DNA of 63,847 nt, the filler included, from Craspedostauros australis (lineage: Eukaryota), in the NCBI GenBank assembly GCA_030167865.1. It is 10 parts of 10 records of this genome, joined end to end, with 100 filler letters (N's around TTAATTAATTAA, not from the genome) between each part and the next. Parts side by side here need not be neighbours in the genome. Positions count along the whole stretch, not along the records: positions 36,794 to 41,992 come from JALAGF010006074.1; 9 more parts are not named here. One strand, written 5' to 3'. Within the stretch, counting starts at the first letter, position 1, and each line of letters opens with the position of its first letter. A program made the position numbers and the translations under genes. Positions 28,390 to 58,267 of this stretch are shown here, piece after piece. A model generated the notes under the pieces. It saw only the letters and a list, made by a program, of their open reading frames with translations. It did no database searches and was not told the origin of the DNA.

Positions 28390-31002
28390 ATGACTTCGAA
28401 CGACGAACCCAACACGAGCAACCGCGAAGAGACGAAGGCAGAAGATGGCCCAACCTTGCCACCTCCCACCAAGGAACCTGACAAACCTGCGAACCCAAGA
28501 GAGGACGATACAGGCAACCATCATCGCGCCCGACGACAAGCAAAAAGAGCCATCCCTTACGATGGAGGAACCGAGGAGAACGACCCCGACGACGTGTCCA
28601 TCACCTACAAGCCAAGATCCAGCACGTTCAAGACCGCGGCCAACAAGACCGGCATCGACATCACGCCATTCGCACGAGCAACAGGAGACGGATCCATCGA
28701 CAGATCAGCAAAAGCAGCATGGAGAGCCAGAGCAATCTGGTATAACAAGGATGAGGCGACGGCCGACCGCGAAAACCCGACCATCAAACAGTGGGAGCAC
28801 TTCTTCAGAGATCTCGCAGACGGAAGGGTCACATCATTCGGGCCCATCACGCTGCCCAACAGAGACCCCACAAGAATGAGGCTCCTGCAATTCGTCATCA
28901 ACGTTGCATCCACCGATCCCCACGAGGTATTCAAAGTACATCTCAACGACGACGGCACGGTACGAACGGCAAGAGCAGTCAAAGTATGGAAGGCCGCGAA
29001 TCGACTCATGGGCTCCAACTACGATCTGGGAGCAGCACCTCTCGCAGACAACGACATCCACATCGACACAATGGAAGGCCTCACACTCCAGACGGAAGGC
29101 GCGGAAGCGAGCACAGCCAGGATGTCCACAAGCCAAGCATTTGCAGCCATGCCAATCGACACAACCACGGGATCCATCAGCACAGACAGCGAGTCGTACA
29201 CCAGCCGCCAGCCGTCCAAACGCACCAGATTCAAATCTCCGAAACAGACAACCGACATGCCACGAGTCAGCCAGAACAGCACGAACAACTCGCAATCTTC
29301 AGGGACGACAAGCAGCAACGATTCGTCAACTGACTCAGGCGTGACCAGACACAGAAGTGGCCCTCGGAACCCTGCCAACCGCAAGCCGTCCACAGACGAC
29401 AACTCCGTCAGCTCAGATGAGGAATCCAACACATCCCAGGCAAAGATAGCACCACCGCGACACGAGCACACCACCAGATTCACAATCAAACTCAACGTCG
29501 ACAGAACCGAAGACGACACCACAGCCGCAGTGCGAGAGCGCATCAAGCGATGGTTCCGGCAGGTCCGACGAATCGATCCTACAGCGGTGATCCTCCCATG
29601 GAGAGAGTCGGCCAACACAGGTCCCCACATCGCCCACTCAGGACAAATTCCAGAGAGAATGGAGGACCTCAGAACCTTCTTTCAAGGATTGCGAGCGCCA
29701 TCCGGGGCAACAGGAATCACGTACGCGAAAGTCCGCATCACCACCAGAGATGATCCCTTCGACATCACGGCAGACCGCAACGCGGAGCTCAACCCATACT
29801 ACTACAACGAGCATGAGGGATTGTACAAAGCCCAGCTCCAAGACGCAGAAGAGGTGAAAGAGATCGGCTTCCTACTATACTCTGGAGGATTCACAGACGT
29901 GGACAGCACAGTGGAAATCATAAACAGGAGCTTCCGACGAACAAACAGCGACATCAGAGTGGGCGGAAAGATGAAGAACATCATCCAGGTCAGCGACGAA
30001 ACCAGAGAAAAGTACAGAGAAGGCAAGCGACACTGGACAGTCCAACCTTGGAGAGCGGTGAAGCTGGAAGTCGAAAGATCACAAGCTTACGCTGCGGTCG
30101 AAGAAGTCGCAAACCTCTTTAACACACGAGCGGAGAGACCGGGAGCCACCAACTTCCGGTTCTTGCCCGACAAGAAGTTTGAGCAAATGTCCCGAAAGAA
30201 GAGCGAGTTCCGAGACGGCCTCATGGCAAAACACCAGGCCATACTTGCAGTGATTGAGTACTCGGACTCCGATGGAGTACTGCACCTGGACAAGAAAGTC
30301 AAAGGCAAGGACAACCGCTCCATCACTCTCCGTAAACTCATACTCCGAGAGACAACCAACGACGGCAAACGGATCTTCCACAGTGTGGACAGAGCCCGAG
30401 GCACCGACGACCAAGTCGTGGCGCACTCATTCCCCGAATACCTGGAACCAGCAAAGCATTTCATGAGCCTCCTGCCTGCAATCGCCCGACACAAAGTAGG
30501 CCCCAAAGCCGAAAAGTGGTTCAGTCCGGAGGTGTGGATTGCCAGCCTCAACATTGTGTACGACCCAGCGACCAACGACTACACGTCCCCTGACACGCAC
30601 AACCTGGAAGACATCGCCGATGAAGAGTTCCCCGCCAGTGTGATCATCACCAATATCCCCGATATGATGCCCACCACTCACAGGCCAGCGGCTCTTGACA
30701 ATCGAAGCCTGTTCAATCCCAACTCGACGATCGGCACCGCCAACAGGTCCATCGACTCAGCGTACACAGCTGCCCCCAATCTGACCACAGGAGACCAAAC
30801 AGACAGCGGATCCAACGCACCGAACACCCCCAACACAACCTCCCACACCACCGAAGGAATCCTGCGTACCGGCGCCAACACAAGATACAACCAGCCCCAG
30901 ACAAGGGAAGCACAACTACTGGCACAGGTGCAAGCACTCCGGCGAGAACTTGGCAAACCCGACGGCGACCCTCCGCAGCCCAATGGAGGCCAGTCACCAT
31001 GA
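28390..31002 (+). CDS. LINE ORF1 protein (870 aa)
   Basis: Intact long ORF with the same A/C-rich strand bias as ORF2. Its stop overlaps the ORF2 start (ATGA). Confidence 0.8.
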   Translation: MTSNDEPNTSNREETKAEDGPTLPPPTKEPDKPANPREDDTGNHHRARRQAKRAIPYDGGTEENDPDDVSITYKPRSSTFKTAANKTGIDITPFARATGDGSIDRSAKAAWRARAIWYNKDEATADRENPTIKQWEHFFRDLADGRVTSFGPITLPNRDPTRMRLLQFVINVASTDPHEVFKVHLNDDGTVRTARAVKVWKAANRLMGSNYDLGAAPLADNDIHIDTMEGLTLQTEGAEASTARMSTSQAFAAMPIDTTTGSISTDSESYTSRQPSKRTRFKSPKQTTDMPRVSQNSTNNSQSSGTTSSNDSSTDSGVTRHRSGPRNPANRKPSTDDNSVSSDEESNTSQAKIAPPRHEHTTRFTIKLNVDRTEDDTTAAVRERIKRWFRQVRRIDPTAVILPWRESANTGPHIAHSGQIPERMEDLRTFFQGLRAPSGATGITYAKVRITTRDDPFDITADRNAELNPYYYNEHEGLYKAQLQDAEEVKEIGFLLYSGGFTDVDSTVEIINRSFRRTNSDIRVGGKMKNIIQVSDETREKYREGKRHWTVQPWRAVKLEVERSQAYAAVEEVANLFNTRAERPGATNFRFLPDKKFEQMSRKKSEFRDGLMAKHQAILAVIEYSDSDGVLHLDKKVKGKDNRSITLRKLILRETTNDGKRIFHSVDRARGTDDQVVAHSFPEYLEPAKHFMSLLPAIARHKVGPKAEKWFSPEVWIASLNIVYDPATNDYTSPDTHNLEDIADEEFPASVIITNIPDMMPTTHRPAALDNRSLFNPNSTIGTANRSIDSAYTAAPNLTTGDQTDSGSNAPNTPNTTSHTTEGILRTGANTRYNQPQTREAQLLAQVQALRRELGKPDGDPPQPNGGQSP

Positions 31003-34000
31003 TAGGCAGCCACAGACGGGCACAGTCCAGCCCGGACACCGACGGACCCAACACGCCAGGGAATTCGAGTTCGGATGAATCGAATCTCCAACAACAACAC
31101 CTCGGCCAAACCACCAACCAAAAGGCCAACACCCAAATCAGGATCGCCACCCTGAACGTAGGAAGCCTACCAACCGACCCTACGGACCCCAAAAACGACG
31201 ACCTATGGCAAACCATACGCCAACACCACATTGACATACTGATGATGACGGAAGTGGGCATCAACTGGAGCAAGACCCCGTCGGACTCCACGCTTGCCCG
31301 CAGAGCTGACAGACAGCTACGCATGGCGAAGATTGCCACAGCACACTGTCACACAGACAGCGACAGCCCACGACAATGGGGCGGCACCGCCGTACTTTCC
31401 CACGGAAACATCGCAGGCCGAGTCCTCTCCAGCAGCAACGACCCCGGAAAGTGCGGCAGATGGGCAAGCGTACTACTCCAGGGACGACAGGGCATCAAAG
31501 TCCGAATCGCCTCAGTTTACGTCCCCACCAAGTCCACCCAAACCTCTGGAACCGTCTACAACCAACAAGCTGTCAAAGCCGCCCAGCGCCAATCGACACT
31601 GGACCCCATCGATCTGCTCATCGCCGACCTGCAAGCACAAATAGCACGATGGCAACAAGCAGGCGAGACAGTGATCATCGGAGGTGACGTCAACATGGAC
31701 GTGCGACGGTCCAAGATCACCAACATGCTGCTCGCCGAAGGCCTCCAAGAACACCACACCAACAACATACGACACCCGTATGCCACCATGATCAGAAACA
31801 GACGACGGACCCCCATCGACGGAATCTGGGCCACGAACGACGTCCAACCCAATCAAATGGGGCTGACACCGTACGGCAGCTGGGACCACCGCATGGTGTG
31901 GTTCGACATCAGCACGAACCACCTATTCGGGCACACCAAGCAGCCAACCCCACCGTTCCGAGGGAGACGACTCCAACTCAGCCAACCCACCACGGTCAGA
32001 AGATACGTGCAGGTATACGAAAGCCAAGCTAACTCGCTACATCTTCTGGAACGGGCGCAATCTCTGAACCAAGCAGTCAGCAATGACCAGATGACACCGC
32101 TGCAGATTCAGACACTCGAGAAAATCGACAACGACAGAACTCAGGCCATACTCCAAGCAGAACGCAAGTGCCGCAAGATCAAAGCTGGGAAGGTGCCCTT
32201 CTCACCGATAGTGTCCAAGCTGAGGTGGGAACATCAGTTCTGGACTCTCAGCATCAAGAGGAGACAAGGCCACAACATCAAAGGGCGCACAATCGACAAG
32301 GCGAAGAAGAAGGCCCACATCCAGCAACGCACGAAGCACATGACAACGGCAGAGATGCACCGGCACCGCAACGCGGCGTGGAAGGCATATCAACAAGAGA
32401 AGAAACACGCCACTGAACACCGGAGGTCATTCTTGGCCGACGACGAAGACGAGGTGGCCAACACCGGAGGCGACACAGCCAAATACCGAGCCCAGCTGCT
32501 ACAGCGAGAGGAGACCAAGGCAACATACCGAAGAATCCGGTGGTCCCTGCAGGCGGATGACTCCAATGCCCAAGTGTCCATGGTCATAGATGACGGCCCA
32601 GGGGGTGAGAACAATCTGCTAACCGCAGGCGAAGAAGTGGCCCGAGCGTGCTGCAAGACCAACATTGACAAGTACAGCCAGGCGTGGCAAGCGGAAGTCT
32701 GCCAGCGACCACTTAAGCGCAGCCTGGGGCGATTCGGATCCAGCCCAGCCGCCACCGCCATACTCAACGGCATCATCCCGTCGCAGATACGCAACAACAC
32801 CAGCGACACCCTTCACTCACTCCGGCGGCCCCAAAGAGCCACACCGTGGCCCCCCGACCTTCTACATATCAGCCAGGAAGACCATTCGCGAGGATGGGCA
32901 CGCATCAAGGAAAGCACGTCATCGGGTCCTTCCGGAATACACTTCGGGTGCTGGAAGGTCAACGCAACCATCCCCGCCCTGGCAACCATCGACTCCATAA
33001 TGAGAGCGATCCCGTACCGCACAGGATACAGCCTCAAACGATGGCAGCAGTGCATCGACATACAGCTCCGGAAAAAGCCAGGCAACTTGGCAGTGACCAA
33101 AACGAGGACCATCGGGCTCATGGAAGGCGACTTCAACATGAACAACCGACTCCTTGGCAAACAAGCCAGGTCGCATGCAGAATCCAATCTCACCCTGGCA
33201 ACGGAGCAGTTCGGCAGCCGCAAGGCGCACACAGCCCAAGAAGTGCTACTCAACACAGTCCTCATCGACGACATCGCAAGGATCACAGGCGCACACTATG
33301 CCATATGCTCCAACGACGCAAAAGGGTGCTACGACCGCATTGCCCACCCCATCTTCAGCCTAGCCCTTCAACGGCAGGGAGTGCCTACAGCACCCATCAC
33401 GAGCACTCTTCGCACCCTCCAGTCGATGACCCACCGCATCCGCACGTCAGCCGGAACATCAGTTTCGTCCTACTCCGGCAAGCAGCGCCACAACTACCTT
33501 CAAGGACTGGTCCAAGGGCTCGGATCCGCACCGACAGGGTGGCTGCTCATCAGCTCCGCCATTATTGATAGCATGAGAGCCAGAGGGTACGGCCTCAACC
33601 TCCCCGACCCCATCACTCGCGATGGCCATACCATCATGGGCACCGCGTACGTCGACGACACCAACATCATGCAAAGCCTGCCCCCCACAACACCCAACGA
33701 GCAAGCGCAATCCTTCCAGGCAGCCGTGGACCACTGGGACGGCCTCCTTACCGCCACTGGCGGGGCACTGGAGCCATCCAAGAGCTTCTGGCAGCTCATA
33801 CGGTTCAAGTGGCAGCGCACGAAGTGGGTCTACGACAACAAGATGCCCACCACGAACGTCTGCATGAACACTCCGACCGGAGAACGCACCCAACTAGCCC
33901 TCACCGGCCCCAGGTCGGCCTCCAAATACCTTGGCATGGTGTCCCGGAGAGACGGACGCCAGTCCGAACACACGCAATATCTGCTCCAGAAATCCCTCAC

Positions 34001-36545
34001 CTGGGCGGCACGCATCCGAGCGTCTCGCATCACCCGACAAGACACAGAGGTGGCTATCAAATCCGTACTTTGGCCATCGCTGCAATACTCGTCTCCGGCA
34101 ACCACAATGTCCACAGACCAATGGAACAAAGTGATGAGCACAGCACTCACGACCGCACTGCCGGCCATGGGAATCGCCCGCACCATTGCACGCCAGTACG
34201 TGTTCGGCCACAAAGACGCCATGGGAATGGGAGTACTGCACCTGTACACAGCCCAGGTGACGTCTCACTTGGAAATGGTTCTCAAGCACTTTGAACGCCC
34301 CACAGAAACAGGACGACTACTACGCACCTCACTGCATCATCTCGAGCTGTGGACGGGATTGCCGGGGCTACTTCAACAGCATGAGAAAGCGTGGGGAAAC
34401 TGGACCTGCTCCGGGTGGTGGCAAAACACATTCAAATCGGCGTCCAAGCTCGGCATCCAGATGACAGACCAATCCCACCCATCCAAAATCCCCCGGACCG
34501 GAGACAGCCCCATCATGAACCTCGCCATCACTTCCGGCCTCCATCGACAGACTCTGGCGCTCGCCAACGTTGCTCGACTACACCTGCGAGTGCTCTGGCT
34601 GTCAGACATCTCCACGGCCGACGGAAGTCAGATACGACCGACGATCCTACAACGCGAAAGGCTGCCATCGAGAGGCATCACCTGGCCCAGCGTTGGCAAG
34701 GTCACCAAGTCGGCGTGGGAGGCGTGGGAAGCGGTCCTATCAACAGTGGCGGCCCCAGACCAGCCAGGATGGCACCTACGGACCCAACTCGGGCCATGGC
34801 AAGGCGCGCCGGCAGGGCGTGACACCCAACTACCGGATGGCACCATCTCCCCCTTCGACCGACCGGCCCCAGCAGCGGCCACGGACCCTCGCCCGGCCCT
34901 CGTGGTTGACCGCGCTCTTCGCAGATCCGGCATGGCCATCACATCCAGCGGGAGAATCGACAGATCGCCAACGCCCGCCACCATACGAGAATGGCTGCAT
35001 CGGAAAGGCCCCGCAGCGGAGGCAATGCTCCCCGATATACACATCCGAGGCGATGTCCATGCAATAGTTCGGTCCATCGCAGCCGGCACCTGTGTGGCAT
35101 GCAGCGATGCCTCGGCCAAAGACCACAAAGGATCTGCCGCGGCTATCATCCAGAGCGGCCTGCAGGACGATGCGCACCAGATCGTGGCGACAGCCGCCGT
35201 TCCCGAGGGCTCTCACCCAACCGACTCCAACAGAGCGGAGCTTGCGGGGGTCCTCATATCCATTTGGCTCATCACCTCGGTAGCAGAGTGGTCCGACATC
35301 CAAGGTAGCGCCACCGTCGCCTNNNNNNNNNNNNNNNNNNNNNNNNNNNNNNNNNNNNNNNNNNNNNNNNNNNNNNNNNNNNNNNNNNNNNNNNNNNNNN
35401 NNNNNNNNNNNNNNNNNNNNNNNNNNNNNNNNNNNNNNNNNNNNNNNNNNNNNNNNNNNNNNNNNNNNNNNNNNNNNNNNNNNNNNNNNNNNNNNNNNNN
35501 CCTCGCCGACGGCTATGCAGGGTACCACTGGGATCGGTTCTATGCAAGCAGCTCCCGAGCCCCAGCAATGGTGGTGCCTACGGAAGGATGGACCCTAAGC
35601 ACCGCTGCCGGTCCCCTCACCGATCTCGACTACTGGACAGTCTCGTCTCTCATCGACGATGGCGGCATCAAAAAGAAGTGGTGCGAAAGATGGGGAGCCT
35701 CCAGCCCGACGAACGTAGATTGGGAGCCCATGCGCTCGGTCTCCCGGAGATGGAGCGGAGGCAAGCGGCGAACGTTGCTCAAGCTCATGACGGGCACCGG
35801 CGCCAGTGGCAAGAACATGCAGCGACGCCAGCAGGAGCAATCCGCAGAATGCCCCAGGTGCGGCAGGCCGGAAGACAACACACACATCCTCATGTGTCCC
35901 AGCGCTGCGAGCCAGTCCATTTGGGCCAAAGCCATCCTCAAAGTGCGGTCAATCGTGAGACCGCCCACCACCCCACCCGAAGTCGCCCAGCTAGTTTGCA
36001 CGGCAATCAAGCGCATCACATCTGGAGGCATTCCTCCCTCAGGCATAAGGACGTCGCCCACTCAGAACATCCAGGTGAGACAGGCCAACATCGGTTGGGT
36101 AGCTCTAATCTGGGGCGGCTGGTCCACCTCGTGGCGAGACCAGGCCCCTCCAATGGCTCCTCACCGGAGACGACGTGCTCCCAAGCTGCTCCGAGACTGG
36201 CAAGTGAGCATCACAAACCTCATGTGGCATACCGTCCTGCAACAGTGGCATGACCGCAACGAAACCAAGGCGGAGCAGACGTCGCAAGGCATGACGGCTC
36301 TCCTTCAACAACAGCTTCACCGCCTCCGTACAACACCCACCGACGCGATCCCAGCAGTGCTGCGACCGCTATGGTCCAACCCACCAGCAACAGCCCAAAT
36401 CGCCGCCCTAGTCCCGTGGGTCCAAGCGATGCAACAAGGACTCGGCCTCGCGGCACCGGACATCCCGACCGTACTCACCAACTGGATGAAAAACCAGCGA
36501 CGTCGCCACCGAGCACCAGCCACTCGCCCCTCGAACCCAGCCTGA
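30999..36545 (+). CDS. LINE ORF2: AP endonuclease, reverse transcriptase, RNase H, CCHC zinc finger
   Basis: APE ATLNVG, MMTEVG, IIGGDVN, PIDGIW, DHRMVW; RT SGPSG, SNDAKGCYDRI, QGLVQG, AYVDDT, KYLG; RNH CSDAS, SNRAEL, LAD; CPRC..EDNTHILMC. One N gap at 35323-35500. Confidence 0.93.
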   Translation: MIGSHRRAQSSPDTDGPNTPGNSSSDESNLQQQHLGQTTNQKANTQIRIATLNVGSLPTDPTDPKNDDLWQTIRQHHIDILMMTEVGINWSKTPSDSTLARRADRQLRMAKIATAHCHTDSDSPRQWGGTAVLSHGNIAGRVLSSSNDPGKCGRWASVLLQGRQGIKVRIASVYVPTKSTQTSGTVYNQQAVKAAQRQSTLDPIDLLIADLQAQIARWQQAGETVIIGGDVNMDVRRSKITNMLLAEGLQEHHTNNIRHPYATMIRNRRRTPIDGIWATNDVQPNQMGLTPYGSWDHRMVWFDISTNHLFGHTKQPTPPFRGRRLQLSQPTTVRRYVQVYESQANSLHLLERAQSLNQAVSNDQMTPLQIQTLEKIDNDRTQAILQAERKCRKIKAGKVPFSPIVSKLRWEHQFWTLSIKRRQGHNIKGRTIDKAKKKAHIQQRTKHMTTAEMHRHRNAAWKAYQQEKKHATEHRRSFLADDEDEVANTGGDTAKYRAQLLQREETKATYRRIRWSLQADDSNAQVSMVIDDGPGGENNLLTAGEEVARACCKTNIDKYSQAWQAEVCQRPLKRSLGRFGSSPAATAILNGIIPSQIRNNTSDTLHSLRRPQRATPWPPDLLHISQEDHSRGWARIKESTSSGPSGIHFGCWKVNATIPALATIDSIMRAIPYRTGYSLKRWQQCIDIQLRKKPGNLAVTKTRTIGLMEGDFNMNNRLLGKQARSHAESNLTLATEQFGSRKAHTAQEVLLNTVLIDDIARITGAHYAICSNDAKGCYDRIAHPIFSLALQRQGVPTAPITSTLRTLQSMTHRIRTSAGTSVSSYSGKQRHNYLQGLVQGLGSAPTGWLLISSAIIDSMRARGYGLNLPDPITRDGHTIMGTAYVDDTNIMQSLPPTTPNEQAQSFQAAVDHWDGLLTATGGALEPSKSFWQLIRFKWQRTKWVYDNKMPTTNVCMNTPTGERTQLALTGPRSASKYLGMVSRRDGRQSEHTQYLLQKSLTWAARIRASRITRQDTEVAIKSVLWPSLQYSSPATTMSTDQWNKVMSTALTTALPAMGIARTIARQYVFGHKDAMGMGVLHLYTAQVTSHLEMVLKHFERPTETGRLLRTSLHHLELWTGLPGLLQQHEKAWGNWTCSGWWQNTFKSASKLGIQMTDQSHPSKIPRTGDSPIMNLAITSGLHRQTLALANVARLHLRVLWLSDISTADGSQIRPTILQRERLPSRGITWPSVGKVTKSAWEAWEAVLSTVAAPDQPGWHLRTQLGPWQGAPAGRDTQLPDGTISPFDRPAPAAATDPRPALVVDRALRRSGMAITSSGRIDRSPTPATIREWLHRKGPAAEAMLPDIHIRGDVHAIVRSIAAGTCVACSDASAKDHKGSAAAIIQSGLQDDAHQIVATAAVPEGSHPTDSNRAELAGVLISIWLITSVAEWSDIQGSATVAXXXXXXXXXXXXXXXXXXXXXXXXXXXXXXXXXXXXXXXXXXXXXXXXXXXXXXXXXXXXLADGYAGYHWDRFYASSSRAPAMVVPTEGWTLSTAAGPLTDLDYWTVSSLIDDGGIKKKWCERWGASSPTNVDWEPMRSVSRRWSGGKRRTLLKLMTGTGASGKNMQRRQQEQSAECPRCGRPEDNTHILMCPSAASQSIWAKAILKVRSIVRPPTTPPEVAQLVCTAIKRITSGGIPPSGIRTSPTQNIQVRQANIGWVALIWGGWSTSWRDQAPPMAPHRRRRAPKLLRDWQVSITNLMWHTVLQQWHDRNETKAEQTSQGMTALLQQQLHRLRTTPTDAIPAVLRPLWSNPPATAQIAALVPWVQAMQQGLGLAAPDIPTVLTNWMKNQRRRHRAPATRPSNPA

Positions 36546-37701
36546 TGCTGACCCGACCTCAGAGCAGACGCCTCCACACACCGACACCTAGTGTCAATCC
36601 GTTCCCGCTGCGTGCATACACGTTGAATCAACGAGGCGGAATAAAAGCGCCCTCGGCGCATGACTTAACAGTTATAATCCGTGTGTTATATATNNNNNNN
36701 NNNNNNNNNNNNNNNNNNNNNNNNNNNNNNNNNNNNNTTAATTAATTAANNNNNNNNNNNNNNNNNNNNNNNNNNNNNNNNNNNNNNNNNNNNGACAACA
36801 GCTTTATTCGCACTTCGCTGATCCGTTTAACGGTGTTATGAATGTTGATGATACCATTCTTGTCGTGGATGGTGTTTGATTCTCTTTTCTTGGTGGAGCA
36901 AGGACAATCCAGCAGATCACAAGAAAGCATTCCCCACGCCAGAAATAATTGGTGCCACCTCTCCGTTTCCAAAGTCGCCCCACAAAATCAAAAAGGACAA
37001 CGATGAACTTCTCTTTTTCACCATCCAACAGCATGGCTGGACACCATCACCACAATCAACAGCCAACCCCTCCGTCCTCTTGCAACTATGTTCAACCTAC
37101 CAACGCAAATCGCCCAACATCAGGAGCGAAGATGATGCTCAGAGGCCTGAGAGCCCAAGCCGAGCCAACGAAGAACCTGCAGTTTGGGATTCGTCCCACA
37201 ACGATCAGCACTGCACCCTCTGCCGTCAACAGCACTCACAAGAAGGCGCTCAGCCCACCATTTTTGGGCCTCCCAGGCGGTCACTTCTTCGACATCAACC
37301 AGCGCCATCTTCATGAGCAAGACAGCAGCCACATCGAGCTCTCTTTTCGCGCAGCATTCGCCTCTATCGACAAGCTGGTCGATACGAGCAGCCTGATTGC
37401 ATTCTACCTCGATGGGTGCTTCTCTGGTGTCTGCTTCATCTGCGGTCATATCTTCTGGCTACTCGCATATGCAGCCTTCTTGCTGTTTGTGCACTTCATC
37501 ATCGTTGCGAAGACAGCAGGCTTCGTCATTTCCTTTGTGAGAGGAATCATCATCGTGCTCGCAAATGCTCTCTTTCGTGGTCGACTCGCACGCACTCACG
37601 CCTGTCACTAAGATACCAAAATGGAGCAGCAACCAATGACAAGCAGGACCAATACATTCTAGAATCCGTTGATAAAGTAGTCAGATCGAGTCTAGTTTAA
37701 C

Positions 37702-38232
37702 CTATCCTCTTGTTGTCATGCGTTCTGCCTTTTCTCGTTTCATTTGCAACTGGTTGTTGAACTTCTGCGCTTTCACTTGTTGATAGAGGTGCTGTTTGAA
37801 CTGCTTCAAATCAAATGCAGCGTACTCCTGTCGGCTTGCCTTGAGCTCGGCCGGTGTCATATGCAAATGTTTCAGTAGCTTTACATCCTCAACAAGCATG
37901 CGCTTGGCAAGGGACAAGTGCATGACAGGCTTCCCGTGAACGTCTCGTGGTTGCTGAGGATGCAGCTTGCGGTCGCGTTCGAGCGCACGCAACTCGATTG
38001 CAGACCGGTCGCGATGCTTGCTCAGCCGCTTCTCAAACGTCTTGAAGTACTTCGCAAACACGGCTTGCGTCATTCCTGGGACTCTGAATTGATGCAATGC
38101 ACNATAGTGCACCCACGCCTCGTCCACAGATACATCCTTCTCATGGAATATGCCGCCAATNTCGAANTCATTCTTGATCATTGCGCTTGCTGGATTGCTG
38201 CGCCAGGTGAACTTCGGCGTGTTGGATGCCAT
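37702..38232 (-). CDS. Small helical protein with two imperfect internal repeats (candidate Myb/trihelix-like transposase partner)
   Basis: 176-aa ATG ORF; WRSNPASAMIK...F versus MHLSLAKRMLVED...F repeats; basic and helical. The function is an inference. Confidence 0.55.
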   Translation of the reverse strand: MASNTPKFTWRSNPASAMIKNXFXIGGIFHEKDVSVDEAWVHYXALHQFRVPGMTQAVFAKYFKTFEKRLSKHRDRSAIELRALERDRKLHPQQPRDVHGKPVMHLSLAKRMLVEDVKLLKHLHMTPAELKASRQEYAAFDLKQFKQHLYQQVKAQKFNNQLQMKREKAERMTTRG

Positions 38233-38828
38233 CCTTGCTGCTTGCTGACGATGTGACTTGCGAAATTTCGAATGTGTGATGTTTCCCGATCATGTCCATC
38301 ATCTCTGTCCAACATCAGCGTCAGCACTCATACCAATCACAGCACGCATGCAACTTCTTGGTACCAGCGGTCCAACATGTGTTGCTGTGTTCGTCACTGC
38401 AAGTTCAAATACAACATATCTTCGAGTTGCGTCCTGTCATCCTCCGCTGTCATCATACCATCCAATCGCCAGCAATATCCCATTTCATTCTTGCCGCCTT
38501 TGCTCGAATCTGGATCTGCATGAAGCTGGATAGTGTCTCATGTGTTTCGCAGCACTTCAATTTTGATCTTGTGTGATAGTCTCGTCGACAGTATTGCACA
38601 TGAACAACATCGCACAGAAATCGCAATACTCAGGCTGGTGATTTGGTTTGGATGCCATGCAAAAGCGCGCAGCCATCCAAGGATCCTTCTTCCGTTCAAG
38701 TTCGGTGGGAAATAGGGTTCGAAGCCAGCATTGGTCCCACCATCAGCTTTTGATTTGATGGGCGAGCAAGCCACACTGGTAACTTGCATGAAGCCGAGGT
38801 GGAACCCAGCTGATGATGAGCTCCTTGC

Positions 38829-38955
38829 TCAACACAGAGCATCAACACAGAGCATCAACACAGAGCATCAACACAGAGCATCAACACAGAGCATCAACAC
38901 AGAGCATCAACACAGAGCATCAACACAGAGCATCAACACAGAGCATCAACACAGA
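38829..38955. repeat. 13-bp minisatellite (TCAACACAGAGCA), ~10 copies
   Basis: Perfect tandem array read directly. Confidence 0.95.
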
Positions 38956-39014
38956 AAACAGCGACGATTCGACTTGTGGCATCAGAACGAACAGGTATCA
39001 TCACATAATCTTGG

Positions 39015-40319
39015 ATGATGCAAACCATCGACAATACTAAAAATCAACGTAAGTCTTTGAGTCGGAGCGTCGCACTTGCTGTCGAACGTACAGGCAAAAT
39101 GAGAAAAGCAATCAGATTTGCCAGAGAGGTCTGTGATAAGAACACATCAGTGTTTGGTCTACCAGGAAGTCAACTTCGTGTCCAAAGCAGCCGTCAGTTC
39201 TCCTTATTGAAGAGGCGAACCATCACAAGCTACATGTCGTTCTTGGAGAAGACTCACATCCAGCCAGGTGAGGGGACCCTTGGCGAGCTCACGGATGACA
39301 GCAGCGATGACATCAGCGACCTTGTGGACAGCCTCACCGATGCACTTGACTCCATCTCGCTGCACTCATCTACTGCTTCTTCGTCTGCAGCTTCTTCATC
39401 AGCTGCTCTGTCAGCCAAAAACGCCACCCCCGCGCAAACACAGCAATCCAACGCCACCACGATGAATGTTAATACTCTTTCCACCCCATGCAAGACAGTG
39501 ATCATTGAAAGCAAGCAATCAGAGACACCACAGCGTGTTCAAGTTGCTGAGGCAGCCTTCGCTTCCCCAGTTCCAGCGTTCTCTTCGCCGGTTCCAATCT
39601 TCGCGTCACCTGTCTTGACCCCGCATGGACATCGGAACAAGCACATCGAGCAAGACCCGATGCTTGCTTCTTTGTTCAACAATGCTGATGATGGCACCAA
39701 GGCGAATCCGTACAAGATCCCTGTCAACCTCGACTTCCCTGAGCGCAATGGACGTTTCCTCATTGATCTTGTCAATGACATGGGTGTGAAGAGCAGAAAT
39801 TTCTCTGGGTATCACATCCGAGTCCCTTCTTCGATCCACGACTTCGACAAGTGGACTGCGACAGTCCCTGTCGACATGCCATTGGTCGCCAATCGTGCCC
39901 TCGTGATTCGCGGACCCAGCACTTACGGCTGGCATCGCAATCCGCACGACTTCTACTTAACCGACGAAGAAGCTGGGAGNGCAAGAATTGCGCTTGGATC
40001 CACCATGGCAAGCATCGAAGGATCGGAGCATCGGAAGTACTCCTACTGGCTTCTCATTTTCCCTGCTGGTGTTGCGTTCGACCACAACGTCTTCGAAAAA
40101 CTCACAGACAACGCCATCCGCACTCACATCTCTGTGCAAGAGGCTGACGAAACCGCAACTGAGCTTGGATGTGTCACTTATGGAGCATCGGCATACTGGA
40201 AAGTCGTGGTGCAAGGCGGTCGCTTGAATGCCAAGCCTGCTGCGAAGGGCATGAAGAATTATCTCGCCATGTTGAAGGCGAAGAAGACTGGCAGTGGAAA
40301 TGGCGACGGCGACGTCTAG
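39015..40319 (+). CDS. Hypothetical protein (434 aa)
   Basis: Intact ORF: basic N-terminal helices, an S/P-rich linker with three (F/A)xSPV repeats, and a globular C-terminal domain starting DGTKANPY..DFPERN. Confidence 0.65.
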   Translation: MMQTIDNTKNQRKSLSRSVALAVERTGKMRKAIRFAREVCDKNTSVFGLPGSQLRVQSSRQFSLLKRRTITSYMSFLEKTHIQPGEGTLGELTDDSSDDISDLVDSLTDALDSISLHSSTASSSAASSSAALSAKNATPAQTQQSNATTMNVNTLSTPCKTVIIESKQSETPQRVQVAEAAFASPVPAFSSPVPIFASPVLTPHGHRNKHIEQDPMLASLFNNADDGTKANPYKIPVNLDFPERNGRFLIDLVNDMGVKSRNFSGYHIRVPSSIHDFDKWTATVPVDMPLVANRALVIRGPSTYGWHRNPHDFYLTDEEAGXARIALGSTMASIEGSEHRKYSYWLLIFPAGVAFDHNVFEKLTDNAIRTHISVQEADETATELGCVTYGASAYWKVVVQGGRLNAKPAAKGMKNYLAMLKAKKTGSGNGDGDV

Positions 40320-40330
40320 GTAGTAGTTGG

Positions 40331-40395
40331 CACAGCACAGCACAGCACAACACAGCACAACACAGCACAACACAGCACAACACAGCACAACACAG
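40331..40395. repeat. (CACAG/CACAA)n microsatellite
   Basis: About 13 pentamer units read directly. Confidence 0.9.
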
Positions 40396-40545
40396 AACAA
40401 GAGCAGCTGCAATTGGAACTGCAGCATCAACGTAACAGGATAATGAGTGAACATGTGTAGTATTGTATTGATTGGTATGTTGCCTAGTTTAGTGTCCTAC
40501 TGATATGGTGGGGTTGGTGTTGNNNNNNGCTCTGCCTTGTGTCCA

Positions 40546-41030
40546 TCAGGCCATGCCCGGATTGCGAGGGATTTCATCAACACCAACGAAGCGATGATCC
40601 GCGTCATCGCCAAGCTGTACACGGATTTGCGAGGCTTGCTTCATCTTCCGAATAAGAATGTTTTGGAATCCTCCGATATCCCCAGTGTCAAGGATGTTGC
40701 ACTCGCACATCGCCATAGCAAGCTTGTCAACCAGCTTGTTGATATCAGCATGCTGTTGCAAGATCGCCTCGACTTTGTTCTCTGGGATCTTGCGGCGCTT
40801 GACGTTGTCCTTGNNNNNNNNNNNNNNNNNNNNNNNNNNNNNNNNNNNNNNNNNNNNNNNNNNCGCTTGACGTTGTCCTTGCTGATCGCGGTTGCCTTCA
40901 GATGCCCGTTGTCCAATTGCAAGATAACCGGAATGCGAGTCTTTGTTCGTGCCTTCTGGGTATTCACCCACCCAATAAGGCCTTTGTACTTGCCACCAAC
41001 GGCTGTGATTGGTTTTCCTTTCATTACCAT
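40546..41030 (-). CDS. Small hypothetical protein (~138 aa) with KOW-like N-terminus
   Basis: MVMKGKPITAVGGKYKGLIGWV. Collapsing the 18-bp duplication around the 50-N gap (40796-40813 = 40864-40881) gives one 417-nt ORF. Confidence 0.6.
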
Positions 41031-41488
41031 GTTGTTCTGGAAGAGATGAACTATGGCATCATCATCTGTGCCAACATGTTGACAACAGCAACAGTAACAG
41101 CAACGCGACCAGTCACGATGCTCGTGGTTGGCAACTCGCGAACACGGGGCCCAACGAGTAACAGTAACAGCGATTGAATTTGATTTCGCGGGTTTGAGAC
41201 ATGTCGCCAAAGGGGTTGGCTCGATTACTTCTCTGTGTACGAGTATGATCACATGTTGCTGTTTGCTTTCGTGCGCGCTGGCAATTTCGTGGCGTTCGGT
41301 TGTTTTGATCGATCGCATCGCCATCGGTTGTAGCGTTCATGGCACGCTGTTGATTCTTCAACCAGAAGTGCAAGTTGTACAACTACCGTCAGCATTAGCA
41401 TAAAGAGCAGCAAGAGGAACATCAGACTTCGCAACAACAGCAACAGCAACAGCAACGAAGACAATCATCGCGCGACGACTACAGCAGC

Positions 41489-41992
41489 ATGTTTTTGAGC
41501 CCAAACACTGTTCTCACGCTCGGGCTTCAGCTGGTGGGGATTGAACACACCGAACAAACATCAAACCGCACTCTTGTCAAACTCTTCCGACAACATTACG
41601 GTTCCAATCCGCTTGATGTTGCTGAGATCTGGTTTGACTTGTGTCATACGACGATCTCTGCAGCTGCGATTGGCACGAAAGAGCAAACAATGAAAGGGTT
41701 CACATTCTATATGATTGCTCTCTATTATCTGTGGCTCTATCCAAAGAACTCGGGCGTCATCGTTTCCCGTTTCGGTATCTGTGAGCGGTATGCCCGAGGC
41801 GAAGCAGTTTGGAACTGGATCAAACGCATCGCAGCATTGCGCGCAAAGAAGATCGTCTGGACCAAGTCGTTGGACCACCCCAATTCAGCCATTTTCGCAG
41901 TGACGGTTGATGGCACTGATTTCCGCACGTGGGAACCCAAGCACCCAACACTGCCAGTGGACCGAGCGCAGTTCTCTCACAAATTTAATCAT
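41489..41992 (+). CDS. PIF/Harbinger-ISL2EU-type (DDE_Tnp_4) transposase, N-terminal part, cut by contig end
   Basis: IALYYLWLYP helix-turn-helix-like region, first catalytic motif VTVDGTDF, FSHKFNH. Confidence 0.8.
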
Positions 41993-42092
41993 NNNNNNNN
42001 NNNNNNNNNNNNNNNNNNNNNNNNNNNNNNNNNNNNTTAATTAATTAANNNNNNNNNNNNNNNNNNNNNNNNNNNNNNNNNNNNNNNNNNNN

Positions 42093-42874: not shown

Positions 42875-45426
42875 ATGGTGTGCCACATCCACAGGACTAC
42901 CTGGGATGCATTCACCAACCTCCAGGAAGAATTTGGGATCAGCATCGAAACTGCTACAATCTTCGACCTCTTCCAACCTAAGACCCTCGTGGAAGAGAAA
43001 ACCCTCTCCGACCTGGTGAGTATCATCCATGAAGGAACCCCAAGAATGGCCCCAGGATCAATCATGATCAACCTCGCTGATCCAGACAACGTCGCAAGAA
43101 ACATTGACATGGGACTTTTCATCTACCATATCGCCAAATGGGTAGGGTCCATCAAAGTCAATAAGGATTCTTCTCTGAAGCAAACCCTCGACAGGATGTT
43201 CATCGACACAGATACCACCAAGAAGACAATGAGAGACTTCGACCAATTCGAAAGGCATGACAAACACTACCACAATGACAAGTGGTTGACTGCCATTGTG
43301 GTATACAAGAAGCTACTTTCCAATGCCACAACACCCAGCACCTCTACTGGATCAGAGGCATCGACCCCAAGGGGAGGACAAGACAATGACAGCCACCCAG
43401 GGAACACCCCTTCTGGGTTCTCATTCCTGATCAACGGAGCCACCCCGGAACGTACCCTGATCAGCTTCCCCAACGAAACCCAACTATCCAGCATTGCCAA
43501 ACAGGGATCCCCAACTGTCTCCCCACCGGCCACTAGCACTCGGGCACCTACCCGACCAGTGAGAGTACTGGCCAAGGAACCGGCATTCACCAATACCTTG
43601 GTACCATCAATACTACTGGAACAGCTACCGACCGTGGACCTGAAGGAAGGAACAAATTGTTCCCCAACATGAACCCGGAAACGATCGGTAGATACGACCG
43701 TAACCTACATGGTACCAAGGCAGCAACCTTCGCTCCCAAAGAAACCACCAGGACCCCAAGAGGTGCAGGCACACCCAGGATGGACCGACCAGACGGCTAT
43801 GGGAACCGGCCACCACACAACTGAAACCCACAGGACTGCCACGGCACCATGGGCAACCCTACCCTGCGCGATACGAGCAACTACCGCAACGACGATGGAC
43901 GCGAACCCATGAACCGGAACCCGACCGCCAACCCAGGCACAAGCCATGGGACAGGCCACTCGTACCCAGAGAACCACGGACCACCAGGATACCAGGGATA
44001 CAAGGAAAATGGCACCATGGGTAACCCAACCCCACACGACATGGGCAACTTCCGCAACGACGACAGACATGAACAGATGACCCATGGCCCGACTACCAAC
44101 AGAGGCACCAACCACGGAACAGGACACCCGTACCCAGGGAACCACGAACCACCAGGTAACCAGGGATACTACGGCAACGGCCCCTATGGCTACCCTCCCC
44201 ACGTAGAGAACCACTATGCGCACGGTCCACCGCACTTTGCCTTCCAATATCCCCACACAGGAGGATTTCCACCTATCGGTATCCCCGTCCCCATGGAACA
44301 CTTTCCCCATGGAAATGGAGGATTTCCCTCAGCCCAAGGAGCATTCGTTACCATCGGAAATCCCCTTCCTGGATACCCACCAGGACCAGCAGGGCATGGC
44401 CAGCATCCAGAGAACCCTCACGGGTGTCAATAAGACGAAGTGTGTGAATCAATGTTGTTCGCTAATATGATGAAAGATTGCATTGATTAGGTGTGGAGTT
44501 GCGGTCTGAACCCCTGCTGGTGTCTTGCTATGCTCTAGAAGAAAAGTGGGCGCGAGGTGCGCGCTTTGCGTACGCAGGGTAGGCGAGTCATGAGCGGGAC
44601 TAGAATCAATAACGGGAACCTCGGGGAACCCGACCCACGCACCATGGGCCCCGGTAATCAACGCGGACAACACGCGACCGGATATGCACCCCATCGAGGA
44701 CCCACCCACGATGAGCCACCACCAGCCCAAGCCAAGTTGATGAAACGTCGTCCCATCCCAGACTCCATCGATTTTACCAGCGACGCGGCATCCTTCCAGA
44801 TGGTGAAACACAAAATCCATGCCCACCTCCTTGGGAACGACATGTCCTACCTCATCAATCACCAGTTCCGCAGCCAGTGCCTTTCCAAAGGAATCCACTC
44901 GATCAGGGAATACATCAACCCGGTCACAGGGGCACCAACGACTACTTCTCCAGAACAGGTCGCAAGCAACATCAGGACCCTATTCGCGGGACTGTACTCC
45001 ATCATTGCTGGCAGCCCCGCACATGATCTAGCCACAAGAGGACTGCTCACTGAAGATGGTTTCATATTCTGGAACAAACTGCTGAATACCTACAAACACA
45101 ACTGGATCAGAGGCATGGAGGTCGACTCCCTCATGAAGAGAGTCCAAGAATTCAACCCTGGAAGACAGGACATGGGATCCTACGTCAAGGAAATCCAGGA
45201 CATCTTCGCCAACATGAACTTCCTGGCTACCAACCCTGACCAGCGAGTATCTGACACACAACAACGCCGCAAGCTCCTCAATTGTCTCATTGGCTGCGAT
45301 GACATCAATGTCCACACTATGGTGAGAAGCATTGAGCATAGCCCCGACATGCAGTCAATGGGCGCCACCTGCATGTACCTCATCTCCGAATCCGCCAGGG
45401 ACACTGCAGTCGCCAACAACCAATGA
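42875..45426 (+). pseudogene. Disrupted gag-like region with G/H/P/N-rich repeats
   Basis: ORF pieces 42875-43672, 43849-44433 and 44557-45426; the last two join in frame once the 44425-44611 insert is removed. Confidence 0.6.
44425..44611. mobile_element. 187-bp solo-LTR-like insertion with 5-bp TSD ACGGG
   Basis: ACGGG at 44420-44424 and 44612-44616; ends TG..TA; abrupt composition shift; removal restores ENPHG-NLGEP. Confidence 0.8.
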
Positions 45427-45504
45427 GGCACAAGATCCGGTAAGCGGAGGATCTACAAGGCAAACACCAAGACCGGCCGTGACCACAACGAAACCAACAC
45501 AGAG

Positions 45505-48500
45505 ATGCTAATCAACGCTATCTCTAAAAAGCTTCAAGAGGACCTCGCCTTCATCTCGCAGGAGGTATTCGACGGGCTACCCAAGAAGATATGCCAAGTC
45601 ATCATGAAGCTCTGTAGTTCACTCCGATGGGCCAGACACGGAAATAATCGGAATGGTTCCGGGTTCACCCGTGTCGAAGGGAAGAAAGAACAGGACAACA
45701 ACCCTCCGTCCGCTGACAAGAAGATCTCTGAGAAAGGGGAGGGCACCGCAGCCCACAAGCAGTACGGCGTCATTGCACAAGCCAACCTGGCCAAGTACAC
45801 CTCAGGGTTTGAAGATCAACCCGACAATCAGGATGATGACGAATCCGACCTATCTTCGATCGACGCGACGGAACTGGCCAAGTTCCTGGTCGACTATGGT
45901 GGATACGACGACGAGGGCGACGATCGACTCATGAAAATAATCACGATGAGCGACTCGTCTGACACGAAGGACACCACTGACCTACCCGCCGACTGGCCAC
46001 GCCAATCGGTACCGGAGCAATTAGTCCACCTCGCGGCATTCTCGCCACAGGCATACGCGGTATGCGACGGCAGCGCGCAGTGCTGCGTCATTGGGAACCA
46101 AGACAAAGTCTGGAAAATTGACTATGTCTATCCACACCAGACATACAACATCATTGGCGCCATGGCAAACACAATGAGGAAAAACAACCTCGCAGTGGTA
46201 GACACGAGCGTCAAGGTCAGAACCAAGGAAGCTGTCTGGTACCCCACAAGGGCGGATGACCAGGATCCCACCGGCAAAACGGCGCAAGGACACAGCCAAA
46301 ACAACTCACCCACTGACATGAAAGAACAAAGCCAATGGAACGACACAGCACACCGGAATCCTGGACACAGGGGAGACATGGCGCGCAGGACCTGTCACCC
46401 AATCCCAAACACTAACCAAGCGGACAGCCAAGGCACCCATGACACGCGTCGCCGAGAAAGCCAAATCGTGAACGACCCGCGATACGCCAGACGAGGAAGA
46501 CTCTGGCCCAGGGTCTTCGTATCTTCCATGTTCGTCGGGACCACCATCATACCAACGCATGGATGACGGCCCCAAAAGAAAGGGGAGGGAATAAGAGGAC
46601 CAAGCAAAAAAACGATCCGTTTTGTCCGCAGGCACCAGGAGAGGCATCCCATGGAAGAACATCATCCATGGAACAATCAGATCCATAGTCCAGACCATCA
46701 CAGCGAATCCAGTCGCGACAGGCGTGAACACCAAACCACCGCAAAGGGTACCCACCCTAACAAACCACCCAGGGAACCCGAGACAGAACCCACCAGGATG
46801 CAACACGAACATCCCATGGGACACGACATCCATCTCTTTCGCCTGCAACCTCATGGCATCAGAGGTCAACCAACTCGCGTACCTGGCTCAATGCGACCAG
46901 TACACCGAAAGAGACAACTTCATCCTCGACGGAAGGAACCTCAACTGGAACGCAAAGGGAATCACACACCACCACTACGAGACACGAGAGGACGGAACCA
47001 CTGAAGCAATCCTGGAGATCCTATGGATGAACGGGATGCGATCATGGTGCAGGATGGGAGACCTAAGGGCCCAACAACCAGACATCATCATCGAATACAC
47101 CGAACAGAACCACCTACAGGACCAGAAGGGCTTCAAATGGGTGGAACCCCACAGAGCAAGGAACCAACACATGTGATCAATGCTAGCCACAAGACTGGCA
47201 AACCATCATCCAGGAAACAAGTACAAGTTCGGCACCCTTGTCCCCAACAGCCTGAGACACGCCATGGCTATCAACAGACTCAACGGGAACGAACTTTTGG
47301 AGCAAGGCCATCAACAAGGAACTGGACCAGATCAAGCGGTTGGGAACCTTCAGACAACCAAGACCGAACGAAACACTCGATGGATACACCAAGATCCCAT
47401 ACCACATCGTTTACGATGTGAAGTTCGACCTACGTCGAAAGGCAAGACTGGTGGCAAACGGAAACAAGACATCCCCACCAACAGAAGACGTATACTCAGG
47501 GGTGGTAGCATCAGACACCATCCGAATCGCCTTCGCCATTGCAGCAGCCAACGGACTGAGAGCATACGCCGGCGACGTAGGGAACGCGTTCCTATACGCA
47601 GACACCCTCGAGAAATGCTACATTCGAGCAGGCCCTGAATTTGGCAACCTCGAAGGCAAACCCCTCATCATCCAAAAGGGACTCTACGGCCTAAGGACAT
47701 CAAATGCGAGGTTCCACGAACATTTCGCCGACACCCTCCGAACCATGGGATTCCTACCCTCCAAGGCCGACAACGACATCTACACCAGAGAAGCCGACGA
47801 CCACTACGAGATGATCACCACATACGTGGATGACGTACTGGTTTTCAGTAAGGACCCCATCCCAATCATCGACGACCTCAAGAAACGGTACACCATGAAG
47901 CAATGCGGTGACCCAGAATACTACCTTGGCGGAAACATTGTCGACCTTCCCAAGAACTGGAAGGACAGGGGAGTCAACATCGGACTCTCGGCCCAGACAT
48001 ACATCGGAAACGTCATCAAACGAGTGGAGCAACTAGTAGGGAAAACAATCCCGAAGGCATCCACTCCCATGGTAGAGGCCTGTCACCCAGAAAGCGACAC
48101 CTCGGACTTCACAAGCACTGAAGACGCCAGGACCTACCAATCAATACTGGGTTGCCTCAATTGGGTCGTGGCCCTCGGGAGGTTGGACATCCAATACGCC
48201 ACGACGACGATGGCACGGTTCGCCATGGCACCAAGGGAGGGGCACCTCCTGACCATCCAACGCATCATTGGGTACCTCAAGGGTCGAGAAAGGGGAGCCA
48301 TCCTTTGCAACCCCAACCCAGTGGACCACACAGACATTGACACTACTCTCTCAAGCCACTGGAGAGAATTCTACCCAACTGTCATGGAAGTCATCCCTAC
48401 TTCGGTACCGACACCAAAAGGAAAACCGGTTCAGATCACGTACTATGTGGATGCCAACCACAGGCATGACCAGATCACAAGGAAATTCATGACAGGCATG

Positions 48501-49112
48501 GTGTGAATGATCAACAATACCATCGTCAAGACCATTTGCAAACAGCAGAACACAGTGGAAACATCCACCTACGGATCCGAATTGGTGGCTGCCAGAATCG
48601 CCACCGAAGCGGTCACCGGACCACGCTACATGCTCAGGAACCTCGGGGTACCCATCGACGGACCAGCAATCATGCTCGGAGACCACAAGGCAGTGGTACT
48701 CAACACCACAGTTCCATCATCAATCTTGAAGAAGAAACACTGCTCCCTGGCATTCCACCAGATCCGCGAATGCACTGCTGCTGGGATCAGCATGTTTGCC
48801 CACATTGCGTCAACCGAGAATATCGCCAACATACTCACCAAGCCGCTCTCCAAGACCCCCTTCCACCACATCACATCAAGAACAGTATTCAGGAACTCGA
48901 TCCATGAGTCAGGGTACCACAGCAAAATCATATCCCCTGCAATCACACAAGCCAGGGCAACCAGAGCAGAGGACGATCCTGACCCAACACCCACGCAGAC
49001 ACCAACACGACCACACCACGAGAACGAACGCACCGACAGAATGAACATAAATGTCATCCGGTACCAACAAACATCCATGAGATTCAGCCCAACACCGAAA
49101 CCATCCGGCTGA
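45505..49112 (+). pseudogene. pol: Disrupted pol: protease, chromo-like domain, RT, RNase H; integrase core not found
   Basis: PR AVCDGSAQCC; EILWMNGMRSW..FKWV; KYKFG..VP; RKARLVANG, GDVGNAFL, LYGLRTS, YVDD; YVDANH, ETSTYGSE, LKKKH, ILTKPL. Several stops and frameshifts. Confidence 0.88.
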
Positions 49113-49533
49113 CCAGGACCCAACGAGAACCGACCCCCCTCGAAATGACACGGAGGAGAGCGCCGAGACCCATCAAGCCTACCATGAATGCACTGGCCAC
49201 ACCCAACCGACAACGCACACGAAATTCCAATGTCTCATGCGACATGGTGGACACATGTATCATGACTCAGAATTGTGAACAAACTGAAACCCCGATCGAC
49301 AATTTCTTGCACGCGCGCGTTGGCACACCGCCTTCAAACCTCACGGATGAATTCAGCCCACTGTCGAGTATCAATCCTTCCACGACATCAGGTAGAAAAA
49401 AGCTGCATTCTATCCGAGGGACATGATGGAGACAGCACCGAGCATGCCTGCCGGCCAATCACATGTTGCCACATCGACATTGTACTGAAAGAAGCCACGA
49501 AGCACCACCAACCCAGCTGCCAACGAAGGAGTC

Positions 49534-58105: not shown

Positions 58106-58267
58106 NNNNNNNNNNNNNNNNNNNNNNNNNNNNNNNNNNNNNNNNNNNNTTAATTAATTAANNNNNNNNNNNNNNNNNNNNNNNNNNNNNNNNNNNNNNN
58201 NNNNNCGTATCACGACTCATCCCCCACAAAACTCCACAACTAGTGTTATCGCGGTGACGCACAGCCA

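Follow-up and report, generated by a model that had tools for sequence, protein, structure and literature searches.

Does a short, unplaced contig of the diatom Craspedostauros australis carry a four-gene transposon of the PIF/Harbinger superfamily (PHIS), or has the end of the contig caught part of a smaller unit? The question arises from a stretch of 63,847 nucleotides (63.8 kb) of assembly GCA_030167865.1, called the window here since it is the whole stretch of DNA that was analyzed. The initial annotation of this window had placed four compact, apparently intronless open reading frames (ORFs), named A to D below, at 37702-41992 and had read them as one Harbinger-type element with two or three accessory proteins, possibly of an undescribed lineage. 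The alignments presented below support ORF D as the intact 5′ half of a PHIS transposase gene. We give an even chance to the reading that the contig end has caught this half gene and that the mobile unit, if it is still mobile, is smaller than four genes.

The contig and its open reading frames

The ORFs, which were called with the standard code and ATG starts, lie on the sixth contig of the window (contig 6) together with two tandem arrays:

36794-41992: contig 6, 5,199 bp, GC 0.50, 60 N, between the artificial joins 36694-36793 and 41993-42092
37003-37611, +: ORF E, 202 amino acids (aa), 90 bp from the stop of ORF A
37702-38232, -: ORF A, 176 aa, three of them X owing to single N, an orphan with coding-like codon usage
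38829-38955: tandem array of a 13-bp unit (TCAACACAGAGCA) x 9.8, 100% matches, 60 bp 5′ of the ATG of ORF B
39015-40319, +: ORF B, 434 aa with one X, N-terminal and C-terminal domains and a disordered linker
40330-40400: tandem array of a 10-bp unit (CACAGCACAA) x 7, beginning 11 bp past the stop of ORF B
40546-41030, -: ORF C, 138 aa after collapse of a gap, 236 aa from a start at 41324, strand uncertain
41489-41992, +: ORF D, 168 aa, running into the N of the contig end, residues 1-168 of a ~300-aa DDE_Tnp_4 (PHIS) transposase family

Since artificial joins stand on each side of 36794-41992, both ends of this contig are assembly ends. The four ORFs of the initial annotation do share one contig, but this contig measures only 5,199 bp and is flanked by artificial joins on both sides. 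ORFs A, B, and D had been placed correctly, and the alternating orientation of A to D (-, +, -, +) as well as the satellite spacers, represented by the 13-bp and 10-bp arrays, are borne out. A fifth, ORF E, had been overlooked. Because ORF E is found on the same contig just 90 bp away, the left limit at 37702 is arbitrary, and the extent of the four-gene unit had been set by eye. Rfam and tRNA scans of contig 6 yielded no match.

ORF D, a transposase gene truncated by the assembly

In an alignment of 27 sequences, ORF D begins at the Met of its family and continues without a gap to the column 'KFNH'. The search for longer proteins yielded 26 relatives at E ≤ 1e-3 out of 290 word candidates; these are 44-57% identical to ORF D over 93-100% of the fragment, and all 26 are 295-377 aa long. 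PF13359 (DDE_Tnp_4) is carried by 22 of them. Four of the relatives were rescanned with Pfam, whereby three scored above the cut-off (34-42 bits versus 24.8) and one slightly under it (22 bits); the DDE domain was the sole domain of the rescanned proteins. The fragment itself had no Pfam match at E ≤ 1, because only ~28 residues of the domain precede the contig end, and the label DDE_Tnp_4 is therefore owed to the full-length relatives and not to the fragment. Within its reach, ORF D retains all 12 invariant columns of the family (mean column identity of 47%), including D141-G142 in VDGTDF, where the Pfam domain starts. D141, the first catalytic Asp, is thus present in ORF D. The other two catalytic residues, an Asp in DRGY and a Glu in HETFNGR, have their positions beyond 41992 in ORF D and are kept in at least 90% of the relatives. 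A comparison of the ORF D profile with PDB sequences gave nothing significant, and the D-family alignment produced 18 pattern matches in the prokaryote genome collection, of which none was confirmed.

Judged by this alignment, ORF D is the intact 5′/N-terminal half of a PHIS transposase gene of the DDE_Tnp_4 type, and its truncation stems from the assembly and not from a mutation. This agrees with the assignment made for the last ORF by the initial annotation, with the restriction that only the N-terminal half is there. By analogy with other DDE_Tnp_4 transposases, the full protein of ~300 aa would bind short terminal inverted repeats (TIRs) via its N-terminal region, and it may act by a cut-and-paste mechanism with a D-D-E active site that leaves a target site duplication (TSD) of ~3 bp.

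Alternatively, D might be a domesticated host gene similar to HARBI1 or ALP1, and the contig an ordinary piece of a gene-dense chromosome with nothing mobile on it. HARBI1 and NAIF1 represent such a domesticated Harbinger pair. Members of the D family are of similar length (295-377 aa) and well conserved, no TIRs or copies are seen in the window, and co-domestication of Harbinger genes has been reported as recurrent (PMC9710019, PMC9392472). The longest contig holding each D relative is mostly 1.1-2.4 kb in size, with 20 of 26 below 3.2 kb, so that these contigs look like single-gene transcripts. However, contig 6 was left unplaced among repeats, a family with many diverged members (44-57% identity) is no less compatible with a spreading element, and at least 90% of the family retain the catalytic D, D and E. 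HARBI1 likewise keeps its catalytic D, D and E. On balance, a domesticated gene appears unlikely.

ORF B, a divergent member of an uncharacterized protein family

An exhaustive search with ORF B returned 284 representatives at E ≤ 1e-3, among them 128 at ≤ 1e-10 and three at ≤ 1e-30. The relatives are mostly 350-470 aa long and match over both ends. One of the 284 matches, P0105 (1,996 aa), was discarded as spurious, as it is a CUB-repeat protein. ORF B consists of a six-helix N-terminal domain (residues ~5-114), a disordered linker (117-207) and an alpha/beta C-terminal domain (~209-426). The alignment of ORF B with 34 relatives (35 sequences) shows the corresponding conservation for the family, namely an N-terminal domain of ~80 aa with a basic stretch (GS..RR..QKKF..K) and a C-terminal domain of ~190 aa with the motifs PERN, HIR, GPS, C..T..AH, YWLLVFP and LDN.IFS, separated by a low-complexity linker. 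The structural model of ORF B reached an overall predicted local distance difference test (pLDDT) score of 75.7, with 92.6 for the N-terminal domain alone, which has six helices, and about 90 for the blocks of the C-terminal domain.

Pfam contains no family for ORF B and none common to the 35 aligned members, and no member showed a Myb/SANT/MADF match at E ≤ 0.01. The same applies to structure-based comparisons: the ORF B profile matched no PDB sequence at E ≤ 1, a Foldseek search of the ORF B model against PDB and viral models gave no match at E ≤ 1e-3, and the N-terminal domain gave none against PDB at this threshold either (best E 4.2). Residues 1-321 yielded no usable match in the Atlas, and of the 28 pattern matches obtained with ORF B alone in the prokaryote genome collection none was confirmed.

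ORF B is 19-27% identical to its relatives (mean 23.5%), which have a mean of 29.3% among themselves. As it is open for 434 codons, ORF B is not simply decaying. As far as its sequence tells, it is an intact, unusually divergent member of a large uncharacterized two-domain family. Within residues 313-361 (positions 39951-40100 of the window), seven residues that almost every relative retains are changed, i.e., Y313F, H314Y, C320A, T323A, H327L, N357H, and S361E. The remainder of the ORF being intact, this replaced cluster may mark a metal site or an active site that was lost.

ORFs A, C, and E

ORF A belongs to no Pfam family, and none of its 55 word candidates reached E ≤ 1e-3; a 132-aa piece of it had no usable match in the Atlas and a best E of 0.39 against PDB sequences. 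ORF E, with a His/Gln/Pro-rich N-terminus and a hydrophobic C-terminal stretch, likewise has no Pfam family, its homology search having covered Pfam and a local set of 176 fetched proteins. Neither ORF A, the pieces of ORF C, ORF E nor the antisense ORFs matched any of these 176 proteins at E ≤ 10.

ORF C is not open as assembled, since a gap of 50 N (40814-40863) interrupts its frame. An identical 18-base sequence borders this gap on either side (40796-40813 and 40864-40881), which argues that the two sides overlap and were left unmerged. The true sequence at 40796-40881 is thus probably 68 bases shorter, which shifts the reading frame of ORF C. When the overlap was merged by script, the minus strand was open for 236 aa, or for 138 aa from the Met at 41030, and the plus strand was likewise open, for 171 aa across the same junction. 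The length of ~138 aa given by the initial annotation is therefore recovered only after the overlap is collapsed. An 88-aa piece of ORF C showed no relatives in the word-indexed search, and a 55-aa piece compared with PDB sequences gave nothing significant. For a weak KOW-like motif near the N-terminus, a KOW identity was rejected as unsupported (KOW5_SPT5, E 0.022, 14.7 bits versus a cut-off of 27). It should be noted that the word-indexed searches, which were used for ORF A and the 88-aa piece of ORF C, miss relatives at 25-30% identity and provide weak negatives. (CAACAG)n microsatellites are located in the upstream extension of ORF C (41082-41105) and in the spacer between C and D (41434-41457), and the same repeat occurs on another contig (13611-13635).

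Whether frames of this size arise by chance was assessed with 500 dinucleotide shuffles of contig 6. None of them contained five or more ORFs of at least 138 aa (mean of 0.92 per shuffle). Taken singly, the ORFs are not beyond chance: of the 500 shuffles, 316 held one or more ORFs of ≥138 aa, 108 one or more of ≥176 aa, and 43 one or more of ≥202 aa. Codon usage was scored with a model trained on B and D that compares sense with antisense (log2 odds per codon). ORF A (+0.32), ORF E (+0.36), and the 138-aa form of ORF C (+0.19) can be set beside controls with Pfam domains (+0.22 to +0.40) and beside B and D, cross-tested (+0.23 and +0.28); the 41031-41324 extension of ORF C scored -0.06. A plain in-frame codon score also favours the stated frames, yet here the plus-strand frame under C equals the minus frame (plus 0.30), so that the strand of ORF C depends mainly on the sense-versus-antisense score. 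Overall, A, E, and the 138-aa form of C show a codon usage that speaks for coding on the strands given above.

The state of ORF C also bears on the idea that contig 6 is an assembly artefact, either a chimera or a collapsed low-quality consensus, in which the adjacency of the ORFs would be false. The contig belongs to a series of concatenated leftover contigs, it has two internal gaps, one of them with the unmerged 18-base overlap, and four single-N calls fall inside ORFs A and B. However, both gaps are confined to ORF C or adjoin it, B and D each align to their relatives without a break at a join, and the composition is even along the contig. An artefact of this kind is therefore regarded as most improbable.

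Do the ORFs form one mobile element?

According to the coordinates, the convergent pairs of ORFs are 90 and 226 bp apart and the divergent pairs 782 and 458 bp, a layout that fits the ordinary spacing of compact genes equally well. Inverted repeats in contig 6 are just 14-26 nt long, with 72-93% complementarity, and include no plausible TIR pair. The comparison of contig 6 with the rest of the window revealed the (CAACAG)n microsatellite as the only shared sequence, and the 176 fetched proteins, searched against the window, matched at the B and D loci only. The canonical partner was looked for as well. A, B, C, E or pieces of them had no Myb/SANT/MADF match in Pfam at E ≤ 1 to 10, and none of the ORFs had a YqaJ or THAP match in this database. 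Together with the lack of a fold match for the N-terminal domain of ORF B, this indicates that none of the neighbouring ORFs is Myb/SANT-like. The prediction of a complex between D (168 aa) and B (434 aa) scored 0.00 in both runs, which were made with alignments unused and with the fold of the partner uncertain, and speaks neither in favour of binding nor against it.

The proposal that A, B, C, D, and perhaps E constitute a single large PHIS transposon, in which two or three of the ORFs encode accessory proteins, draws on the fact that all of them lie tightly packed and apparently intronless on one 5.2-kb contig, that A, C, and E have a coding-like codon usage, and that the contig is unplaced and found among repeat contigs. 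Moreover, PHIS elements that encode three proteins without a Myb-like one are known (PHISTA; PMC12730594). Yet no termini and no second copy are seen in the window, and A and the C piece are without detectable relatives in the word-indexed search, compared with 26 for D and 284 for B. A compact genome would likewise yield genes that are tightly spaced and alternate in strand, a perfect alternation of five genes occurring by chance in 1 of 16 cases, and the left limit is arbitrary, with ORF E only 90 bp away. One large element comprising all of these ORFs is consequently considered quite improbable.

In the favoured reading, in which the contig end has caught the 5′ half of a PHIS transposase gene, the mobile unit would take one of two forms: the transposase by itself, to which C may or may not be added, or a Pangu/Harbinger2-like element with two proteins. 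In the latter case, ORF B, which is encoded on the same strand 1.17 kb upstream of D, would be the motif-less second protein, and ORF C would be inside the element by position only. The basic helical N-terminal domain of B, as modelled, might then recognize the element ends or the transposase and replace the Myb-like protein. B is motif-less and of a size usual for the second ORFs of algal Pangu elements. It also diverges far more than D (19-27% versus 44-57% identity to the respective relatives), which is the pattern reported for Harbinger second ORFs in comparison with their transposases (PMC9179366). The likeliest account of A and E is that they are ordinary orphan genes lying nearby in a genome dense with genes.

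Several observations weigh against this reading. No further copy of any of the five ORFs occurs within the 63.8-kb window, and no TIR or TSD is visible on contig 6, which ends inside D; because TIRs, a TSD, and a second copy are all lacking in the window, mobility itself is putative. The uniform length of ~300 aa and the high conservation of the D family would also fit a domesticated host gene. With regard to the two-protein form, a coding-like ORF C on the opposite strand between B and D is unusual for a two-ORF element. Preservation is also unequal, B having lost family-conserved residues while D kept its own: ORF B retains 29 of the 43 columns common to at least 80% of its relatives, the lowest value of the 35 sequences (30-43 in the relatives), and has lost C320 and N357, each of which is kept in 34 of 34 relatives. 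Finally, given that the word-indexed search misses relatives at 25-30% identity, A and C may still be conserved partners.

A bolder version holds that B and its several hundred relatives are an unrecognized partner protein of a heterokont or diatom PHIS lineage which replaces the Myb-like factor, in an element that also holds C and perhaps A. We regard this version as doubtful, and even with B as partner the element would extend the described PHIS architectures by no more than a new member or a variant. If B does travel with the D family, a function could be assigned to a large, confidently folded but unannotated protein family from environmental sequence collections. If true, a non-Myb partner would also join the few proteins listed as guides of Harbinger-type transposases, with a bearing on how such elements find their ends and on their later domestication.

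The other contigs of the window

A scan of the whole window detected nine artificial joins, each composed of 44 N, TTAATTAATTAA and 44 N, which divide it into ten separate contigs of 2.2-13.4 kb. Besides the two joins that flank contig 6, these are:

8404-8503: artificial join
10746-10845: artificial join
23075-23174: artificial join
28204-28303: artificial join
55496-55595: artificial join
58106-58205: artificial join
60773-60872: artificial join

According to Pfam scans, at least six of the nine other contigs bear a retroelement domain, and the window looks, by its content, like a bin of unplaced, repeat-rich leftover contigs. The features assigned to these contigs comprise:

869-5404, -: AAA_16 ORF, 1,512 aa
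10849-14540, -: AAA_16 and TPR_12 ORF, 1,230 aa
15655-17355, +: non-long terminal repeat (non-LTR) retrotransposon ORF, Exo_endo_phos alone
24027-28112, +: Copia-type ORF, RVT_2
30699-36542, +: non-LTR retrotransposon ORF, Exo_endo_phos and RVT_1, with a gap of 178 N at 35323-35500
42875-43672: ORF to the right of contig 6, on another contig
47256-48503, +: Copia-type ORF, RVT_2
55598-58105, +: Copia-type ORF, SH3_retrovirus
61046-62377, +: Copia-type ORF, RVT_2

Copia-type domains (RVT_2, gag_pre-integrs, and SH3_retrovirus) are distributed over four contigs. The two AAA_16 ORFs, located on different leftover contigs, look like paralogous STAND-type nucleoside triphosphatases by their domains, and one of the two contigs is also among the six that carry retroelement domains. 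Long open frames of 295-885 aa at 28345-30999, 44539-46563, 49489-51489, and 58271-60772 found no match in Pfam at E ≤ 1e-5 and probably represent diverged parts of retroelement gag/pol regions or unknown genes.

As the reverse-transcriptase ORF to the left of contig 6 and the ORF to its right are on other contigs across artificial joins, they are not its physical neighbours. Any inference from neighbourhood across the nine joins is unsafe, and the flanking context in the window is artificial. As it stands, the locus amounts to part of a transposase gene on a contig left over from the assembly, and the main practical lesson lies in this artificial neighbourhood.

Comparison with known systems

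Canonical Harbinger elements have two products, a DDE transposase and a Myb/SANT-like protein, the latter of which binds the element ends and imports the transposase. ISL2EU elements carry a YqaJ exonuclease and Spy elements a single ORF (PMC9179366). Six PHIS groups have been defined by their target duplications (Han et al., 2015, PMC4482050), among them TWA for PIF/Harbinger, ANT for Pangu, CWG for NuwaI, and AT for ISL2EU, with none for Spy (PMC4482050). With PIF/Harbinger and Nuwa, the locus shares a transposase of the DDE_Tnp_4 type, and in such systems a fast-evolving partner recruits a conserved transposase (PMC9179366). However, their Myb/SANT-like second ORF is not among the five ORFs on the basis of Pfam, the helical domain of ORF B matches neither a Myb nor any other solved fold, and a TWA or CWG target duplication is not visible on contig 6. 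The locus differs from ISL2EU, in which the transposase bears a THAP or HTH domain, in that no ORF of contig 6 has a YqaJ or THAP match.

PHIS elements with additional genes offer a second comparison. PHISTA families of rust fungi encode three proteins, none of them Myb/SANT-like, and HarbingerS of oomycetes is a PHIS element with a captured SET methyltransferase gene (PMC12730594). In both cases, however, the extra genes are recognizable enzymes (TET/JBP and SET, respectively) and the termini are described, whereas the extra ORFs at this locus have no known domain and no termini are visible. The domesticated pairs ALP1-ALP2 and HDP1-HDP2 resemble the locus in possessing a conserved transposase-derived protein of the ~300-aa class, maybe with a partner (PMC5339849, PMC4890758). 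The partners in these pairs and in HARBI1-NAIF1 are Myb-like, single-copy, and syntenic.

For diatoms, Harbinger-like elements have been reported from T. pseudonana and two uncharacterized transposase-bearing elements from P. tricornutum (PMC2806351). A family named Harbinger4_TP with 3-bp duplications is listed elsewhere (PMC12730594), and Phaeodactylum and Thalassiosira appear, in the available parts of the survey of the six groups, only in the list of screened genomes (PMC4482050). A text-based literature search, i.e., one not conducted by sequence, turned up neither the B family nor the A-D gene arrangement. Still, the suggestion of an undescribed lineage is weakened, as groups with a motif-less second ORF and groups with three proteins, none of them Myb-like, are both in print (PMC4482050, PMC12730594).

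Another close likeness is to Pangu, which corresponds to Harbinger2 of Repbase and to which the SET-carrying HarbingerS of Phytophthora is related (PMC12730594). The Pangu transposases form a clade beside bacterial IS5. In Pangu elements, the transposase has no further domain and the second ORF no known motif, autonomous copies averaging about 3.5 kb (PMC4482050). Among 31 of the Pangu rows in Table S3 of that study, 24 have a second ORF of 170-592 aa without a named domain, including one of 415 aa in a brown alga and several of 413-458 aa in a red alga; families of Ectocarpus, Phytophthora, and Chondrus are among them (PMC4482050). Some of these families have DDE_Tnp_4 transposases of 268-487 aa together with second ORFs of 230-555 aa (PMC4482050, Table S3). 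Three features of the locus are similar: the D family and B would likewise pair a DDE transposase without any other domain with a motif-less second ORF, if their putative membership in one element holds; the average of ~3.5 kb is the size that B through a full-length D would cover; and Pangu families are reported from an oomycete and from two algae, one brown and one red. The locus differs in that the ANT target duplication and the 11-40-bp TIRs of Pangu are not visible on contig 6 and in that the extra ORF C lies between the two genes, and B is likened to the Pangu second ORFs by description only.

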